DNA from: Patescibacteria group bacterium
Lineage (GTDB): Bacteria > Patescibacteriota > Microgenomatia > Levybacterales > GWA1-39-11
NCBI GenBank assembly: GCA_035549295.1
Contig: DASZRG010000036.1
Location: forward strand, 13,324-77,323
Length of the DNA: 64,000 nucleotides
Direction: 5' to 3'
In this document: positions 8,399 to 61,717 of the stretch, piece by piece
How the letters are laid out: each line of letters opens with the position of its first letter
Numbering within the stretch: the first letter of the stretch is position 1
Notes under the pieces: generated by a model
The model's database searches: none
Told to the model about the DNA's origin: nothing
What the model saw: the letters and a program-made list of their open reading frames with translations, nothing else
Made by a program: the position numbers and the translations under genes

Positions 8399-8456
8399 GG
8401 ATTAATTGTATCTAAAAAATGCCACAAATACTACGATAGGAAAAAGAAAATTGCAA

Positions 8457-8492
8457 GAAACTAGAGACTAGATATTAGATACTAGGAATTTC
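8457..8492. promoter_or_regulatory. CTAG-rich conserved ~33-bp motif, 59 nt upstream of the uxs start in the divergent uxs/gmd promoter region
   Basis: GAAACTAGAGACTAGATATTAGATACTAGGAATTTC, followed by AGTGATTAAG/AGTGATTAGG sub-motifs. Confidence 0.65.
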
Positions 8493-8580
8493 TAAGTGAT
8501 TAAGATTAAAGGAGTTAGTGATTAGGAGAATATCTTTTTACATATTAGATATTGCATATTACATATTATAAGGATGAACG

Positions 8581-12004: not shown

Positions 12005-12075
12005 TGTCATTCTGAACGTAGTGAAGAATCTTACTTGCCTAAACCCAATATCCTTCGTTCCACTCAGGATGACAT
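12005..12075. repeat. Degenerate family-1 hairpin repeat with TGTCATTCTGAACG / CACTCAGGATGACA inverted ends, between the ugd start and the rmlD-like stop
   Basis: Its ends are 10/14 inverted-complementary and it shares the GTCATTCTGAAC terminus. Confidence 0.6.
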
Positions 12076-13025: not shown

Positions 13026-13085
13026 AAATTAACATACTACATGTGACATTTAACATGTGACCAAATCTCGGACAATTGTCAAATG

Positions 13086-14096
13086 TCAAATGTTTTTATA
13101 TTGTCGTTCATAATATTTCTGGTAATCGCCATTCTTAATATCCTTCCACCATTTTTCATTATTCTTGTACCAATCGACAGTCCTCTCAAGCCACTCATCA
13201 AAGCTATGCTGTGGTTCCCAGCCTAATTCATTTTTTATTTTTGACCAATCGACTGCGTACCTTCTGTCATGACCAGGCCTATCCTTAACATATTCAATAT
13301 TGTCTTCAGACTTTCCTAAAAGTTTTATTATTTTTTTTGCAACTTCAATATTTGGCATATCTTCTGTAAGTCCACCGACAACATAAGTCTCACCGATTTT
13401 TCCGCCTTCTAAAACTTTTTCTATCGCTCGAACATGATCATCCACATACAACCAATCACGAACATATAATCCATCCCCATAAACCGGAATTTTTTTTCCT
13501 TCCAGAAGATTGGTTATGGCAAGAGGAATAATTTTTTCTGGAAATTGATAAGGGCCGAAGTTATTGGAACAATTAGTAATAGTTATTGGAAGTTGGTATG
13601 TGTGATAATAAGCTCTTACTATATGGTCTGAACCGGCTTTACTGGCCGAATATGGACTTCTGGGATCATAAGGTGTTCGTTCACTGAATTTACCCGAATC
13701 AAGCGGAAGAGCTCCAAATACCTCATCGGTTGAGATGTGATGGAAGCGTTTGACGCCAACTTTTTGAGCCGCATCAAGAAGAATTTGCGTCCCTACCACG
13801 TTAGTTGTAAGAAATGGTGCGGGATCATCAATAGACCTATCGACATGAGACTCCGCTGCAAAATGCACGACAGTATCAATACCTTCCATTGCGGAAACTA
13901 CTTGATCGGGAGACGTTATATCCCCGTGAATAAATTTATAGCTTGGATTATTTTCGACAGAGAATAAATTTTCAAGATTCCCCGCGTAAGTAAGCTTATC
14001 GAAGTTTACTACAGTATCATCTGGATGATTTTTTATCCAGTAAAGTATGAAATTACTACCTATAAAACCCGCCCCACCAGTTACAAGTATCTTCAT
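13086..14096 (-). CDS. rmlB: dTDP-glucose 4,6-dehydratase
   Basis: MKILVTGGAGFIGSNF, HFAAESHVDRS and YSASKA are classic RmlB motifs. Confidence 0.9.
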   Translation of the reverse strand: MKILVTGGAGFIGSNFILYWIKNHPDDTVVNFDKLTYAGNLENLFSVENNPSYKFIHGDITSPDQVVSAMEGIDTVVHFAAESHVDRSIDDPAPFLTTNVVGTQILLDAAQKVGVKRFHHISTDEVFGALPLDSGKFSERTPYDPRSPYSASKAGSDHIVRAYYHTYQLPITITNCSNNFGPYQFPEKIIPLAITNLLEGKKIPVYGDGLYVRDWLYVDDHVRAIEKVLEGGKIGETYVVGGLTEDMPNIEVAKKIIKLLGKSEDNIEYVKDRPGHDRRYAVDWSKIKNELGWEPQHSFDEWLERTVDWYKNNEKWWKDIKNGDYQKYYERQYKNI

Positions 14097-14113
14097 AATT
14101 AATATCCAAAAAT

Positions 14114-14141
14114 AGAAATTAGAAATTAGAAATTAGAAATT
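14114..14141. repeat. Microsatellite (AGAAATT)x4
   Basis: Seen directly at 14114-14141 between the rmlB start and the Nudix stop. Confidence 0.8.
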
Positions 14142-16554: not shown

Positions 16555-16599
16555 GTAGTAAAGTATCAAAGGTATCAAAAGTATCAGAGGTATCACGAG
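16555..16599. repeat. Tandem 9-bp repeat array, (A/G)GTATCA(A/G)AG x4
   Basis: AGTATCAAAGGTATCAAAAGTATCAGAGGTATCACGAG lies in the promoter region of the CAP-domain gene. A near-identical array is at 31021-31058. Confidence 0.8.
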
Positions 16600-16717: not shown

Positions 16718-16750
16718 TTTCCTAGTATCTAATATCTAGTCTCTAGTTTC
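16718..16750. promoter_or_regulatory. CTAG-rich conserved ~33-bp motif (reverse complement of the copy at 8457-8492)
   Basis: TTTCCTAGTATCTAATATCTAGTCTCTAGTTTC is the reverse complement of GAAACTAGAGACTAGATATTAGATACTAGGAAA at 8457. Confidence 0.7.
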
Positions 16751-16757
16751 TCGCATG

Positions 16758-17069
16758 CTAATACTCTGGCAGTACTAGATCTCCCAGGTTTTTTTCATTC
16801 ACTTTTATACCCAATGCAAAGGATAGGGCGTTTGCAATTGCAATTCCTACTCGAAGTCCAGTAAAAGATCCGTCACTGCTCTCTACAAATATCTCATTTA
16901 TCTCATTAGCTTTTATTTTAGCTTTTTGCAAAACTTTTTGAATCAAAGGCAATGCAGCCTGGAACTTCTGTTCATATGCAGTCGAACTTTCAACGTACTC
17001 GCGACCACCACAACTTAGGCGAATTACAATCTTTTTGTTATCTCTGGTGTCTATAAATAGTTTGTTCAT
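16758..17069 (-). CDS. tsaB: tRNA t6A37 biosynthesis protein TsaB (YeaZ), short form
   Basis: SSDGSFTGLRVGIAIANAL matches the TsaB GSFTGLRIG motif. The protein is only 103 aa, so it is the N-terminal domain only. Confidence 0.6.
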   Translation of the reverse strand: MNKLFIDTRDNKKIVIRLSCGGREYVESSTAYEQKFQAALPLIQKVLQKAKIKANEINEIFVESSDGSFTGLRVGIAIANALSFALGIKVNEKNLGDLVLPEY

Positions 17070-17644
17070 ATTTTTACATCAACTGCCCCACGTCTCAAAA
17101 TTTTGGGTATTTTTGTTGAACAGTCAACAACAGTAGATGCTTTTTTTAAGCTGCATCTTCCCGACATGACAAAATCAACAATAGAAATTAATTCAGGACT
17201 AAGATCAGAATACGTATAAGGCGTATTTTCTCCAGAAAAATTTGCAGATGGTGCTAGGATAGGAACACCAATACCTCGTATCAGTTCTATCGTTGTTGTA
17301 TGTCCAGGCATTCTGACACCGATTGTATCACCACCACCTCTAACAAATTCCGGAATGAGTTCTTTTTTGCATGGAATAACTATTGTTAATCCGCCCGGCC
17401 AATAGCTTTTCATCAGTTTATATGCTTTCGAATTTATGCTTTCAGCAAATCTTTCAGCCATTTCAACTGATGAAACTAAAACAGGAACTGCTTTTTCAGG
17501 CGATCTGCGTCGAATTTTAAAAAGTTTTTTGACAGCGCGATCATCGTCAATTCGACAACCTATCCCAAATGCTGTATCTGTTGGAAAGATAATGATGCCA
17601 CCTTCTTTGGCAACTTTTATTGCTTTTTTTAAATTTTTATTCAT
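17066..17644 (-). CDS. tsaC: L-threonylcarbamoyladenylate synthase TsaC/YrdC
   Basis: IIIFPTDTAFGIGC and APSANFSG are YrdC/Sua5 signatures. The start was set at the internal Met (MNKNLKK) to avoid a 50-nt overlap with tsaE. Confidence 0.8.
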   Translation of the reverse strand: MNKNLKKAIKVAKEGGIIIFPTDTAFGIGCRIDDDRAVKKLFKIRRRSPEKAVPVLVSSVEMAERFAESINSKAYKLMKSYWPGGLTIVIPCKKELIPEFVRGGGDTIGVRMPGHTTTIELIRGIGVPILAPSANFSGENTPYTYSDLSPELISIVDFVMSGRCSLKKASTVVDCSTKIPKILRRGAVDVKI

Positions 17645-18077
17645 TTTTTGTAATTTGTATAAGCCTTTTGTTTTCACCAGAGTCATTTATATCAACGTTC
17701 CAATTTGAGACTAAATTTTCGTGTTTTTCGCCCCATTCAATAAGAAAAATGCCTGTAACATCTTCGAAAATATCATCAAGTCCAAGTGAATTTATATCCG
17801 ATACCCCTTCCATTCGATATAAATCAATATGATATAAATTGATTTTTTTTATACCAATTTTACCTCTATGTCTTCGAACCAAAACAAAAGTTGGCGAAAT
17901 AATTCTGCTTTTTATTGAAAGCGATTTAGCAACCCCCTGAACAAAAGTGGTTTTTCCGGCACCAAGTTGTCCATTAAGAATTACTAAATTGCCAGGGGCT
18001 AATTTTTTTCCAAAATTAAATCCTACCTCCTCAGTCTCGCGTGCTGAGGCAGTTACAAATTTTTGTTTTTCTTCCAT
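17637..18077 (-). CDS. tsaE: tRNA t6A37 ATPase TsaE (YjeE)
   Basis: The P-loop LNGQLGAGKTTF and the TsaE-typical ~147-aa length. The start was taken at MEEKQKF. Confidence 0.75.
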   Translation of the reverse strand: MEEKQKFVTASARETEEVGFNFGKKLAPGNLVILNGQLGAGKTTFVQGVAKSLSIKSRIISPTFVLVRRHRGKIGIKKINLYHIDLYRMEGVSDINSLGLDDIFEDVTGIFLIEWGEKHENLVSNWNVDINDSGENKRLIQITKNE

Positions 18078-21887: not shown

Positions 21888-21952
21888 TTGAGATTAACAT
21901 GTGACATTTGACATCTGACCCCGATATTATCGGGGTTAATTGTCAATTGTAA

Positions 21953-25005: not shown

Positions 25006-25006
25006 A

Positions 25007-25042
25007 TTCTAGTCTCTAATATCTAGTATCTAGTTACTAGCT
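25007..25042. promoter_or_regulatory. CTAG-rich conserved motif copy, overlapping the last codons of prfB and abutting the DUF3850 start
   Basis: ATTCTAGTCTCTAATATCTAGTATCTAGTTACTAGC is related to the copies at 8457, 16718, 49325 and 53429. Confidence 0.65.
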
Positions 25043-30999: not shown

Positions 31000-31020
31000 C
31001 TGAAATATCCCCGAGAGAAA

Positions 31021-31058
31021 AGTATCAAAGGTATCAAAAGTATCAAGAGTATCAAAGG
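31021..31058. repeat. Tandem 9-bp repeat array (second locus), AGTATCAAAGGTATCAAAAGTATCAAGAGTATCAAAGG
   Basis: Seen directly. It lies ~60 nt upstream of the ion-channel gene and matches the array at 16555-16599. Confidence 0.8.
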
Positions 31059-31116: not shown

Positions 31117-31914
31117 ATGAAAGTGCAGTCTAAGAGGCGAAGCCGCGACTTTGTTGATAAAATATCTTACTTCCTTATAATTATTGCTCTTCCACTCGTT
31201 CTAGTTGATTATCTATTTCATCCTGCACCCGAACTTCGGGCTCTTTTTGATGAATATTTTATCTTTATATATTGTCTTTTCGTTGTTGAGCTTCTTATTA
31301 GGTTCTTAAGAACACGCAACAAAAAAGATTACATAAAAAACAATTGGGTAGAGTTTGTTATCGTCATATTTCCATTCTTCAGACTTCTGGGACTCGTCCC
31401 TATACTTGAGGAGGCATTTATCATAGGTATTGATCGTGTTACCAAAAAACTCGCTCACCCACATCACATAGCAGTTATAAACACTGTTATATTTATGTTT
31501 ATTGCAGTACTGGTTGCAAGCGAGGCAATATTATTTTTTGAGAAGCCATATGGCGGAAGCACAATACGAACTTTTTCTGATGGTCTTTGGTGGTCAACTG
31601 TTGGAGTTTCAAATATTGGATTTGCAGGCAATTTAATTCCTGAATCGATTGGCGGTAAGATTCTCAATCTCTTATTAGTCTTTATTGGTATGTTTTCGCT
31701 TAGCATGATAACGGCAAATATTGCGGCATTTTTTACAGAAGAAGATGTAAAGGCTGATATCGATCGAGAACTAGTTGAGATAGAACTTGATCTTTCAAAA
31801 GTTAAACGTGAAATGAAAACTGAAATTGACCATGATGACACTGAAATAAAAGATGAGCTCAAAAAGATTGAAGACAGGATAGACGAGCTGAAAGATAGCA
31901 AGAACAATGGATAA
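31117..31914 (+). CDS. 6-TM ion channel of the voltage-gated/Ion_trans type with a non-canonical pore sequence
   Basis: Multiple TM helices. The pore-helix-like DGLWWSTVGVSNIGFAGN carries TVGVSN instead of TVGYGD. The C-terminal tail is an acidic coiled coil. Confidence 0.5.
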   Translation: MKVQSKRRSRDFVDKISYFLIIIALPLVLVDYLFHPAPELRALFDEYFIFIYCLFVVELLIRFLRTRNKKDYIKNNWVEFVIVIFPFFRLLGLVPILEEAFIIGIDRVTKKLAHPHHIAVINTVIFMFIAVLVASEAILFFEKPYGGSTIRTFSDGLWWSTVGVSNIGFAGNLIPESIGGKILNLLLVFIGMFSLSMITANIAAFFTEEDVKADIDRELVEIELDLSKVKREMKTEIDHDDTEIKDELKKIEDRIDELKDSKNNG

Positions 31915-33944: not shown

Positions 33945-34237
33945 GTGAATTCAAAACAATACTATGTATATATTTTGACGAATAAACTAAATACGGTTTT
34001 ATATACTGGTATAACAAACGACTTAATTAAGAGAGTTTATGAACACAAAAATAAATTAGTTTCGGGATTTACTGAAAGATATAATGTTAACAAGCTCGTT
34101 TACTATGAAATCGCCGAGGACGCATAGGAGCAATAAAACGAGAGAAACAAATCAAAGGTGGTTCAAGGGGTAAGAAAAACGATTTGATTACAAAATTTAA
34201 TCCCGATTGGAAAGATTTATATGATGACCTTGCATGA
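33945..34237 (+). pseudogene. GIY-YIG nuclease family (UPF0213/YhbQ-like, ~97 aa), interrupted by a frameshift near 34122-34129
   Basis: Frame A reads MNSKQYYVYILTNKLNTVLYTGITNDLIKRVYEHK...YYEIAEDA*. In the -1 frame it continues GAIKREKQIKGGSRGKKNDLITKFNPDWKDLYDDLA*, which matches the conserved C-terminal half of this family. Confidence 0.6.
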
Positions 34238-34280
34238 GATTGCTTCGTCAGTCGCAAGCTCCTTCCTCGCAATGACAAAG
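34236..34280. repeat. Family-2 hairpin repeat, right inverted copy (GAGATTGCTTCG...CCTCGCAATGACAAAG)
   Basis: It is the reverse complement of the termini of the copy at 33893-33932. It starts at the GIY-YIG stop and ends 8 nt before the mazG-like stop. Confidence 0.8.
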
Positions 34281-34630: not shown

Positions 34631-34798
34631 GAATTCAATTCAAGTGTACAATCAAATAATCGATTTAGCAACATAGTAGTTTAAGTCATTAAGATTAAAA
34701 GACTAAAATGATTAGCCAACACTATCCTTCCCAGGTTCTCTTGATCACTAATTCCTTTAGTCTTAATCACTATTATCCTGCCGTAGTATAATCTATCT

Positions 34799-36481: not shown

Positions 36482-36542
36482 AAATTGCTTATACTTACTA
36501 GCTAGATTACTCCCCACGTTCAACTTCGCGATATTAGAAAAT

Positions 36543-36630
36543 CGTCGTCCTGATACTCGCTTCAGGACCTCGACGAGATGCTGAAACACGTGAAAGCTGC
36601 TGCTTCCAGTGCAAGCAAGTTCAGCATGAC
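36543..36630. repeat. Hairpin repeat of family 1, inverted orientation (M2 then M3 with an insertion)
   Basis: GTCGTCCTGATACTCGCTTCAGGACCTCGAC + GAGATGCTGAAACACG...GTTCAGCATGAC. Confidence 0.75.
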
Positions 36631-36639
36631 AAAAGGGGA

Positions 36640-37281
36640 TTAATTGAATAGTCCCTTGAGGATATTGAACGTGCGGCCTGTGTCGTGGTCTTCGACAATC
36701 AGGATAAATTCATGAGGATTTGTAATAACTTCCAGTATATTTATACCATCCCATGCAAGAGATTTGAGAAAGAAATAGTAAATACCCGGCGTTTTTATCG
36801 TATTTGGTGGAAGATATATAGTAACTGCCGATACTTTATGCTGTAAAAGAATGGGCCTTTTACCATCGATTGTCTCTTTATACTTTTCGTAAAGATCCTG
36901 GCTTAAAATGAGAGTCGTCTCTCGTCTGCCCTCATTTCTAAAGTAAAGTGATCCCGAATCCATCTCTTGGGAAAGCAGTAGCGACAAACCACGGTCTTCG
37001 TTTTTGTTAAGCGTTACAAGAGTAAAGCCCGAACGAACACTTATTTCTGGGGCGACTTTAAAAAGATTGGAAGTCTTGTATTTTGGTTGGAAATCAGGCT
37101 CAAGACGATTCAGAGCCATAACAATAGATGCCTGACTCACCTTTTTCAAAAGCATCTCCTCTATCTCAGGCTTTATATAACGGGCAAGCGATGAATAGTT
37201 AATAATTCCCTTTGAAATAGCCTCCGATAAATATCGGCTGCGCTCAATAATCTTTTTGGTTGCTTCCGGAACGGTTATCAT
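36640..37281 (-). CDS. Hypothetical protein, possibly with an ACT-like C-terminal region
   Basis: 213-aa ORF with weak ACT-like beta-alpha-beta character. It is not assignable. Confidence 0.3.
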   Translation of the reverse strand: MITVPEATKKIIERSRYLSEAISKGIINYSSLARYIKPEIEEMLLKKVSQASIVMALNRLEPDFQPKYKTSNLFKVAPEISVRSGFTLVTLNKNEDRGLSLLLSQEMDSGSLYFRNEGRRETTLILSQDLYEKYKETIDGKRPILLQHKVSAVTIYLPPNTIKTPGIYYFFLKSLAWDGINILEVITNPHEFILIVEDHDTGRTFNILKGLFN

Positions 37282-49263: not shown

Positions 49264-49324
49264 ATTATTTATTCAAAAGATGATACTATCCACATTCAAT
49301 TCAGTCAAGGGGCATGTTGTGAAA

Positions 49325-49358
49325 TAGTGATTAGAAACTAGATATTAGTGACTAGGAG
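49325..49358. promoter_or_regulatory. CTAG-rich conserved motif copy upstream of the SDR gene
   Basis: TAGTGATTAGAAACTAGATATTAGTGACTAGGAGAAA. Confidence 0.6.
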
Positions 49359-53425: not shown

Positions 53426-53428
53426 AAG

Positions 53429-53466
53429 TTAGTGACTAGATACTAGATATTAGTAACTAGGAATTG
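53429..53466. promoter_or_regulatory. CTAG-rich conserved motif copy, 3 nt upstream of the secA start codon
   Basis: TTAGTGACTAGATACTAGATATTAGTAACTAGGAATTG. Confidence 0.65.
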
Positions 53467-53536
53467 AGGTTATATTTTAGCACATCCCAGGCTCAAATAC
53501 TAAATGCGAATTGCTAGTTTAAATTCTTACTAAAGA

Positions 53537-53790: not shown

Positions 53791-54075
53791 AAATTCTAGC
53801 TTATTTCTTCTTCTTCTTTTTTTTAGCAGCCATTATAAACACCTCCCGTCGCTTCTGAAAAAAATTCAGAAATTAGGATAATTTAATCGTGAATAATTAG
53901 TATCGATTTGTCAAGAAAAATACGTTGCTTCAAAAGTAATAATTTGGATTGATATATCAGTCAAAATCAAAAAATAAAATATGCATTTTTGTAGGCACAA
54001 AAATGGAAAAATAATTTAGATTTTTTTGGCCGCAATTAGGAAACATTTGTATTGTTTTAATGCGGCACAAAGGAT

Positions 54076-61582: not shown

Positions 61583-61663
61583 ATATTTTTTCCAACAAAA
61601 AAATAACCCCTTCTACGGAGTCTGCTTCTTTGCTGATTTAGAAATTATTATTACATTCATATT

Positions 61664-61714
61664 GAGATCCTGAAACAAGGTTCCCCCGATTCAATCGGGG
61701 TTCAGGATGGCGAC
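61664..61714. repeat. Family-1 hairpin repeat (M1, inverted orientation), abutting the greA stop
   Basis: GAGATCCTGAAACAAGGTTCCCCCGATTCAATCGGGGTTCAGGATGGCGAC. Confidence 0.85.
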
Positions 61715-61717
61715 TTA

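Follow-up and report, generated by a model that had tools for sequence, protein, structure and literature searches.

What are the five CTAG-rich motifs that recur at gene boundaries in a 64-kb stretch of a Patescibacteria genome (64,000 nucleotides of contig DASZRG010000036.1, assembly GCA_035549295.1; hereafter the window), and do they act on the genes beside which they lie? A preliminary description of this DNA had presented them as a candidate operator or promoter element. All five were found where it had placed them (with coordinates refined slightly), and their positions relative to the neighbouring genes (uxs, prfB/DUF3850, SDR and secA) hold as given there. Each copy matches exactly a pattern of 20 specified bases (TAGNNACTAGATATTAGNNACTAG), for which 0.00 matches are expected in the 64-kb window (100 dinucleotide shuffles), and runs of at least four YTAG tetramers at period 7 occur exactly five times in the window versus none in 30 shuffles. 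We consider it highly probable that the five motifs are copies of a dispersed heptamer-repeat spacer module that was gained in this lineage.

Every copy is built of four to five tandem heptamers of the form (A/G)(C/T)TAGNN, set at an exact period of 7, and Tandem Repeats Finder independently reported this period at all five (as well as many further period-7 arrays in the window spacers). Copy 1 (8456-8488, +; located by pattern and period-7 scan) reads AGAA ACTAGAG ACTAGAT ATTAGAT ACTAGGA A, and copy 2 (16719-16751, -) is its exact reverse complement over 33 nt, in agreement with what had been described. Copy 3 (25006-25041, -) reads GCTAGTA ACTAGAT ACTAGAT ATTAGAG ACTAGAA T, copy 4 (49324-49357, +) reads ATAGTG ATTAGAA ACTAGAT ATTAGTG ACTAGGA, and copy 5 (53428-53462, +) reads GTTAGTG ACTAGAT ACTAGAT ATTAGTA ACTAGGA. 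When the five are aligned with their flanks, they share an invariant centre (ACTAGATATTAG) and an invariant feature, namely a TAG at each seventh position (preceded by C, T or A); their likeness is confined to the heptads, and nothing is shared past ~35 nt. The earlier account of CTAG needs correcting: the copies hold two to four of these tetramers (rather than four each) and the tetramer is not depleted in the window (99 occurrences vs 96.5 expected from trinucleotides). The sub-motif AGTGATTA(A/G)G, said to accompany several copies, has 10 matches at no more than one mismatch where 9.0 are expected, which is not above chance; a longer relative, of ~33 nt, does have three copies.

Since a period of 7 is not divisible by three and CTAG is its own reverse complement, stop codons are present in all six frames of each of the five copies. 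The module therefore cannot sit inside a gene and survives only outside reading frames, and its purely intergenic location thus says nothing on regulation. The comparison of coding and intergenic frequencies, which had been suggested as a check on a regulatory role, did place the motif in intergenic DNA only, yet it is uninformative given these stops. The quasi-palindromic character that had been pointed out is real and (like the weak hairpin that goes with it) arises because CTAG is self-complementary. The predicted RNA structure is weak for most copies (-3 to -7 kcal/mol), and only copy 5 reaches an appreciable stability (on the + strand -11.5 kcal/mol with z = -3.7, against -7.4 kcal/mol for the strand found in the secA mRNA). 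Rfam returned 0 matches at the gathering threshold for the whole window, a tRNA scan of the window was empty, consensus scans found no terminator-like sites at the modules, and the left flank of the source contig (+9.8 kb) holds no new copy.

Three other identities were tried and rejected. The five-copy alignment shows no terminal inverted repeats, target-site duplication or shared flanks, as MITEs (miniature inverted-repeat transposable elements) would have; a structured RNA or terminator would have to make do with weak CTAG-dyad hairpins and an empty Rfam search; and an origin among the cyanobacterial short tandemly repeated repetitive (STRR) sequences or the HIP1 palindromes is contradicted by the taxon (Patescibacteria) and by GCGATCGC, which occurs 0 times in the window.

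The gain of the module can be followed upstream of secA. The SecA protein of the window is ~75% identical to Candidatus Levybacteria proteins, and six relatives (SecA 71-80% identical; secA loci of ~22.7 kb each) were picked independently of the motif. In all six, a conserved extended -10 element, TGnTA(A/G)AAT, lies 12-29 nt before the secA ATG, and the module is found upstream of secA in none of them. The window has the same element (TGTGCTAAAAT, 53474-53484, -) at 48 nt from the ATG, and the module accounts for the difference. Since the conserved -10 has been kept and displaced by the module, copy 5 represents an insertion of ~32 nt in the secA 5' untranslated region (UTR). TAG-heptad arrays number 0 in the 136 kb of the six relatives, as against six in the 64 kb of the window.

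A second junction, that between the genes of ribosomal proteins S12 and S7 (rpsG), tells a similar story. Among Levybacteria with arrays, several have an S12-S7 spacer of ~85 nt in which GATTTAW heptamers are combined with the CTAG module; the spacer of three further relatives (S7 76-91% identical) measures 7 nt (TTAAATT), and these genomes have no arrays at the junction or elsewhere in the sequence covered (20 kb each, 61 kb in total). For copies 1-4, the proteins encoded alongside were compared by tblastn with every locus retrieved, and no orthologous junctions were recovered. Judged from these sequence comparisons, the module is a recent gain of this Levybacteria-like lineage and has multiplied inside the genome, 33 nt being the same in copies 1 and 2. 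With the module missing at the orthologous secA and rpsG sites, a conserved operator or promoter is not supported; the regulon element envisaged in the preliminary description is further disfavoured by the variable position of the copies relative to promoters and by their presence inside operons.

The surroundings of the copies illustrate this variability. Copy 1 occupies the divergent gap between a uxs-like gene (ATG 8398, -) and a gmd-like gene (ATG 8732, +; both identified by Pfam), in reverse sense relative to uxs and ~57-63 nt upstream of the uxs-like ATG, while copy 2 is situated 8-12 nt downstream of the stop codon (16758-16760) of a 103-aa tsaB-like open reading frame (ORF) and ~210 nt upstream of the ATG (16508) of a CAP-domain gene. 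Copy 3 encodes the last prfB codons together with the TAG stop (25030-25032) and adjoins, at 0-2 nt, the ATG (25005-25003) of the DUF3850/ASCH gene, being in forward orientation in the mRNA. Copy 4 is ~61 nt from the ATG of the SDR gene, which has a promoter-like site (TTGACT-17-TATCAT, 49308-49280, -) whose -35 lies ~16 nt downstream of the copy. Relative to promoter-like sites, the module may thus stand upstream of the -35 (SDR), in the 5'UTR (secA), at a stop/start junction (prfB-DUF3850) or past a stop (tsaB-like ORF). Copy 5 (in the secA 5'UTR, downstream of the promoter) and copy 3 (at the prfB/DUF3850 intercistronic junction) are, by their positions, very likely transcribed into mRNA. 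As a separate observation, the tsaB-like ORF (16758-17069, -; 103 aa) matches only the N-terminal part of the Pfam TsaD family and follows downstream of tsaC (Sua5, 17066-17686) and tsaE; it may be truncated, and such a truncation could be linked to the insertion of copy 2.

The module is widespread outside the window. The exact pattern was recovered at 48 loci in species-representative genomes, at 79 metagenome loci and on one viral contig, where ~1 chance match would be expected in the genome collection (an estimate from search-space size). CPR-rich groundwater, in the form of the Hainich 0.1 um fractions, gave many of the matches. All external loci were picked by the exact 20-base pattern, and controls were drawn from within the data (all trinucleotides and periods); a control scan of viral contigs was dropped, there being one viral match only. 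The hosts comprise many Patescibacteria (Levy-, Davies- and Saccharibacteria), Bacteroidota, Idiomarinaceae, Fibrobacter and Monoglobus; the heptad core spans at least 6 phyla, and in genomes of the Candidate Phyla Radiation (CPR) the five-unit module is the typical form. Period 7 dominates the tandem repeats of array-bearing genomes (44 arrays, versus 0-3 at periods 5, 6 and 8-12). One Levybacteria locus (L021) has its arrays within the S10/spc operon of ribosomal-protein genes, often as a pair in which a forward array past the upstream stop faces a reverse array before the next ATG; neighbouring junctions of the same operon carry other A/T-rich heptamers (AAATAAT, AAAAATT, AATTTTG).

Some of the hosts deserve a comment in their own right. 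In Pseudidiomarina/Idiomarina (L023, L027, L035, L042), forward TAG-heptad arrays and reverse CTAATAT/CCAATAT arrays are disposed around a 20-nt centre, and this pair makes up a long imperfect hairpin present at the same locus in several species of what is another phylum. In Monoglobus metagenome-assembled genomes (MAGs; L002, L026, L034) the pattern is embedded within a longer repeat, ggtgggaacgTAGGGACTAGATATTAGYAACTAGGGACTAGG..cccctctcagtc, with several copies per contig, which suggests a repetitive extragenic palindromic (REP)-like family carrying the same heptads. A further set of array-bearing MAGs is labelled 'uncultured Gammaproteobacteria' (L005, L006, L011, L014, L017-L019, L022, L025, L036, L045). 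One of them (L011) is syntenic with the window at 50-66% amino-acid identity, and the S7 of such MAGs is up to 91% identical to that of Levybacteria; the labels are probably wrong and the organisms Levybacteria-like.

Where the arrays adjoin genes, they do so in a preferred layout. In 31 of the 82 metagenome arrays a start codon on the opposite strand lies -1 to +11 nt from the 5' end of the array, while the other orientation is equally near a start in only 3-4 of the 82; the genome loci agree. Counted along the mRNA, the core CTAATATCTAG stands exactly 28 nt (4x7) from the ATG in 13 of 46 unique cases, and in 25 of the 46 the separation falls within 28-31 nt. The commonest layout reads CUAGUNN CUAAUAU CUAGUNN CUARUNN CUAANNN AUG, that is, five phased heptads covering -35 to -1. 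Copy 5 has this flush layout (five phased heptads, core-to-ATG 28 nt): it ends 3-4 nt from the secA ATG (53425) and on the secA mRNA (- strand) reads CCUAGUUACUAAUAUCUAGUAUCUAGUCACUAACUU-AUG. In-phase stops at -3, -10 and -17 were recorded in other loci. The genes downstream of the modules encode S7 (5 distinct genomes), L14 (4), L16, L20, L10, L3, EF-Tu, EF-G, SmpB, YchF, Rho, SecA and SecF, and ~17 of 39 belong to the translation apparatus.

These leaders have to be viewed against the start signals of the host. A tetramer resembling the Shine-Dalgarno (SD) sequence precedes the start in 1 of the 57 other window genes and in 0 of 27 module leaders. In approximately one third of the window genes the ATG is preceded, at 5-9 nt, by a hexamer resembling TATAAT (often with TG), a signature of mRNAs that lack a leader, with examples upstream of the ATGs at 1510, 45341, 47296, 48333, 34799, 43904 and 55970. 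The array-free relatives show the same start signals (few SD sites, leaderless-type promoters), and in this Levybacteria-like lineage leaderless mRNAs would seem to be the rule.

We tentatively favour a reading in which the module would act on the mRNA, as an SD-independent leader or re-initiation pad, a function that we infer from sequence and position. An effect at the transcript level is preferred over an operator in double-stranded DNA because of the strand bias near starts, the end locked to the ATG, the operon-internal sites and the location of copy 5 downstream of its promoter. The five phased heptads, in covering -35 to -1, would coincide with the stretch touched by a loading ribosome (the 30S subunit with protein S1), and would offer it a leader that is A/U-rich, weakly structured, SD-free and rich in stops. 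Ribosomes arriving in any frame would terminate inside the module and then restart at the adjacent AUG. The heptads may be read by a protein of the oligonucleotide/oligosaccharide-binding (OB) fold that binds single strands (S1 or cold-shock type), with ~7 nt per domain. Copies 1, 2 and 4, which lie away from starts, would be by-products of the same spreading and have little or no function.

Several points weigh against the mRNA-leader reading. Copies 1, 2 and 4 are 57-213 nt from the nearest start codon, and orientation is mixed among the five window copies. Close relatives have secA and rpsG without the module, and since they express these genes without it, the module is dispensable. The sequence conservation computed at orthologous S7, L14 and prgI sites was discounted: these loci had been chosen for an exact match to the 20-base pattern, which inflates it, so that it is no sign of purifying selection. 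Ancestral spacers, being short, could by themselves place inserted modules within a few nt of an ATG, the orientation bias could stem from a strand-specific insertion process, and a protein acting on double-stranded heptads is possible. We list with these points that G content differs little between the strands, the orientation bias being without a simple compositional explanation.

The alternative that survives best is that the arrays are selfish or neutral repeat DNA: slippage or some other copying process would make heptamer arrays that are tolerated only in untranslated spacers and have no function, with the positional rules arising from short spacers and purifying filters. We rate it as possible, if somewhat unlikely, and as nearly equal to the mRNA-leader reading. 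It is consistent with the sporadic occurrence among close relatives (0 arrays in nine), with the many unrelated heptamer units used by the period-7 arrays of the same genomes (some of them stop-free, e.g., AAATTCG and AATCTCG), with a 14-nt difference in unit number at orthologous L16 sites, and with the point-mutational decay of an orthologous array between two of the MAGs (L005 vs L019). The long, microsatellite-like arrays of ACTAGAT in Bacteroidota (11-19 units) fit it as well, as does the report that heptanucleotides are the commonest long simple repeats in prokaryotes, with polymerase slippage as the explanation offered (Mrazek 2007, summarised in PMC4679880). However, a neutral origin sits poorly with the modal size fixed at five units and the centre common to several phyla, with the ~8:1 orientation bias of start-adjacent modules, and with the share of ribosomal-protein genes downstream (~33%, vs ~7% of genes, the latter an estimate). 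Nor does it readily account for the persistence of modules at rpsG and rplN between genomes that have diverged to 53-77% identity in the DNA coding for S7 and L14, although this sample is subject to ascertainment bias.

A more specific form of the mRNA-level proposal would make the five-heptad module a dedicated non-SD start signal, phase-locked over -35 to -1, for ribosomal-protein and core genes in Patescibacteria, read either by tandem OB-fold domains (S1 or cold-shock type) or by a nuclease cutting polycistronic RNA down to leaderless cistrons, with all-frame termination feeding re-initiation. Stated in this way, we regard it as doubtful.

An operator or centromere-like site in the DNA itself appears less probable still, and we hold it to be improbable. 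Here, a small dimeric protein of the ribbon-helix-helix (RHH) class (Omega/ParB-like) would bind one heptad per dimer, polymerise over at least four heptads and repress or organise the adjacent genes. The 4-5 contiguous 7-bp units in both orientations recall the pSM19035 sites (PMC9499535), the CTAG blocks give intrinsic dyad symmetry, and both copy 4 (just upstream of a -35) and copy 5 (between the -10 and the ATG, the classic position of a repressor) are placed as an operator might be. Yet the sites are missing from the orthologous promoters of relatives, occur inside ribosomal-protein operons and at stop/start junctions, and are strand-biased with respect to the downstream gene; a core present in at least 6 phyla would need one widely shared regulator, and the unit is unrelated to WATCACW. 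No regulator came to light either, the 20 small window proteins containing no DNA-binding domain (neither an RHH nor a helix-turn-helix protein).

A promoter or UP-like element is very improbable. It would draw on the TAnnnT-like hexamers of the reverse strand (TAGTAT, TAATAT) as -10s or A/T-rich enhancers, including those of leaderless transcripts, and indeed each reverse heptad holds a TA(A/G)TAT-like hexamer, flush modules put TA(A/G)TNN at -13 to -8 from the ATG, and this geometry fits the leaderless promoters of the window (TATAAT 5-9 nt before the ATG). Against this, the consensus scan made no promoter-like call on any module (which bears out the earlier view that they are not directional promoters), sigma-70 -35/-10 pairs at 16-18 bp are not provided by the modules, and separate promoter-like sites lie beside copies 4 and 5. 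The start-proximal hexamer is often without the essential final T (TAATTA, TAGTCA, TAATTC), secA has kept a conserved extended -10 of its own on the upstream side of the module, and modules occur in both orientations and also after stop codons. Finally, an oligomeric RNA-binding protein of the HutP/TRAP type, recognising UAG triplets at 4-nt spacing and controlling termination or translation, is hardly credible, for while the TAG-rich strand does read (UAG N4)x4-5, with the spacing of the HutP XAG repeats (PMC2425495), the preferred transcribed strand is the opposite one (with some UAA instead of UAG), no terminator hairpin is associated, two sites with a 12-17 nt linker are required where only a single cluster is present, and no HutP-like gene was found among the window proteins.

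Related repeats accompany the five copies in the window. An array of (AAATTAG) x4.7 (14109-14141, +) is made of TTAG-type units and belongs to the same class, with the conserved core missing; on the mRNA of the gene at 13086-14096 it reads CUAAUUU x4, 16 nt before the ATG. A second module of ~33 nt, AGTGATTAAGAYTAAARGA-TTAGTGAT, is present in three copies (8494-8527, +; 34684-34716, +; 34741-34773, -) and consists of degenerate heptad-like units with SD-like AAGGAG/TAGGAG. Its copy at 8494-8527 (+) lies beside copy 1 as a degenerate heptad-like run (AAGTGATTAAGATTAAAGGAGTTAGTGATTAGGAG), and the two others form an inverted pair in the divergent gap 34631-34798. A heptamer-type motif, (T)TAACATGTGACATTT(A/G)ACATNTGAC, was noticed in the spacers 13026-13085 and 21888-21952, each time upstream of a minus-strand gene. 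Two similar arrays, at 16560-16595 and 31018-31056, repeat a unit of 9 nt (GTATCAAAG) ~4 times, each 15-20 nt upstream of a promoter-like -35; they precede the CAP-domain gene and the gene at 31117-31914, in opposite orientations with respect to the gene.

Other features of the spacers are of a different kind. Between serS and secA, a tiny ORF (53801-53833, -) encodes MAAKKKKKKK and a stop, and is preceded by GGAGGTG, which is among the very few strong SD-like sites of the window. The versions found in relatives (9809-9850 in L051, L052 and L054) read MAKKKAKKKKK, MAKKKKAKKRK and MAKKKAKKRKKR, each likewise ending at a stop, and past the ORF there is a conserved hairpin-rich stretch (ggttggattccg...cggaataccaattgatcaaatggtattc...) with no Rfam match. 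The ORF could be a poly-lysine leader peptide, or part of a structured leader, that controls secA. A MITE-like hairpin family (gtcattctgaaccccgat..atcggggaacc...) recurs in spacers at 12007, 23519, 33205, 53540 (core TCATTCTGAAC), 36540-36640 and 61650-61717, and a remnant resembling a GIY-YIG nuclease (33990-34240) is flanked by 'cgtcattgcgagg' repeats.

Taken at the level of the lineage, the module could bear on how internal cistrons are translated in Patescibacteria, with their few SD sites and many leaderless genes. Its presence flush with the start in several CPR genomes, and its absence from close relatives, could offer a natural experiment in how spacers bear insertions, or else represent a portable SD-independent signal. 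For annotation, the arrays are markers of gene borders that in some cases contribute the stop codon, and labelling them as operators should be avoided. They also tie CPR genomes to the heptamer-repeat phenomenon of Beggiatoaceae, Cyanobacteria and Bacteroidetes, which suggests a common cause.

How, then, does the module compare with systems already described? Our literature search, which fell short of all journals, found no paper on CTAG heptamer arrays or on heptamer repeats in CPR bacteria. With MITE/REP-like elements the module shares that it is short, dispersed, intergenic, multi-copy and lineage-specific (copies 1 and 2 being identical), and in this sense the earlier remark that it behaves like a mini-element was apt; it differs in being internally tandem, without terminal inverted repeats beyond the CTAG units and without target-site duplication. 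As in long simple heptanucleotide repeats and the cyanobacterial STRR heptamers, period 7 is dominant, the phyletic distribution is sporadic and the unit number changes between relatives. Classical simple repeats, in contrast, are homogeneous, variable in length and of many sequences, whereas the module is of defined length, has its units in a set order, and turns up as a dispersed family, both inside single genomes and across them.

The two protein-bound systems are more distant. The HutP protein recognises XAG motifs x3 with 4-nt spacers (in-line cleavage at U498/U505/U512), in two sites joined by a 12-17 nt linker (PMC2425495). The Bacillus hut leader resembles the module in having UAG triplets at 7-nt spacing on one strand, but it has two triplet clusters that flank a terminator, needs HutP and occurs at a single locus per genome, whereas the usually transcribed strand of the module is the complement and no terminator is present. 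At the parS/operator sites of pSM19035, the RHH protein Omega binds runs of 7-10 contiguous WATCACW heptads, which may point either way, and full activity requires no fewer than 4 of them (PMC9499535). Common to these sites and the module are at least four contiguous 7-bp units, in either orientation, beside gene starts; what sets pSM19035 apart is the WATCACW unit, the role in plasmid partition and repression, and a binding protein encoded alongside, while the module has operon-internal sites and a strand bias, and no RHH gene was seen among the window proteins scanned.

The closest parallel is provided by the TAACTGA direct repeats (MacGregor 2015, PMC4679880), which occur in marine Beggiatoaceae and in some Cyanobacteria and Bacteroidetes. 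These usually comprise 2-6 contiguous units, are intergenic and lie mostly a few nt upstream of starts, including sites inside ribosomal-protein operons (L3, fusA and others), and SD sequences are lacking; each of the three frames meets a stop in them, which at times terminates the preceding gene, and they are present in some genomes and missing from close relatives, and have been given a putative post-transcriptional or translational role, with OB-fold RNA binders already suggested as their readers (PMC4679880). The module is alike in its contiguous 7-nt units (4-5 of them), in its sporadic presence, in being SD-free with stops in all frames (copy 3 holding the prfB stop), and in preceding the genes of S7, L14, L16, L3, L10, L20, EF-G and EF-Tu. 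Proximity of a few nt to the start is shared by copies 5 and 3, though not by copies 1, 2 and 4, and by the 31 start-adjacent metagenome arrays. It is unlike the TAACTGA repeats in that its units are YTAG-based, (A/G)(C/T)TAGNN, and non-identical, with a fixed five-unit form around the ACTAGATATTAG centre; in that its self-complementary core brings stops on both strands, dyad symmetry and the use of both orientations; and in its host (CPR Patescibacteria) and its phase-locking to the ATG at 28 nt. The module is thus a new sequence variant of the heptanucleotide-repeat leader arrays, TAACTGA-like in kind and constituting a sequence family of its own.

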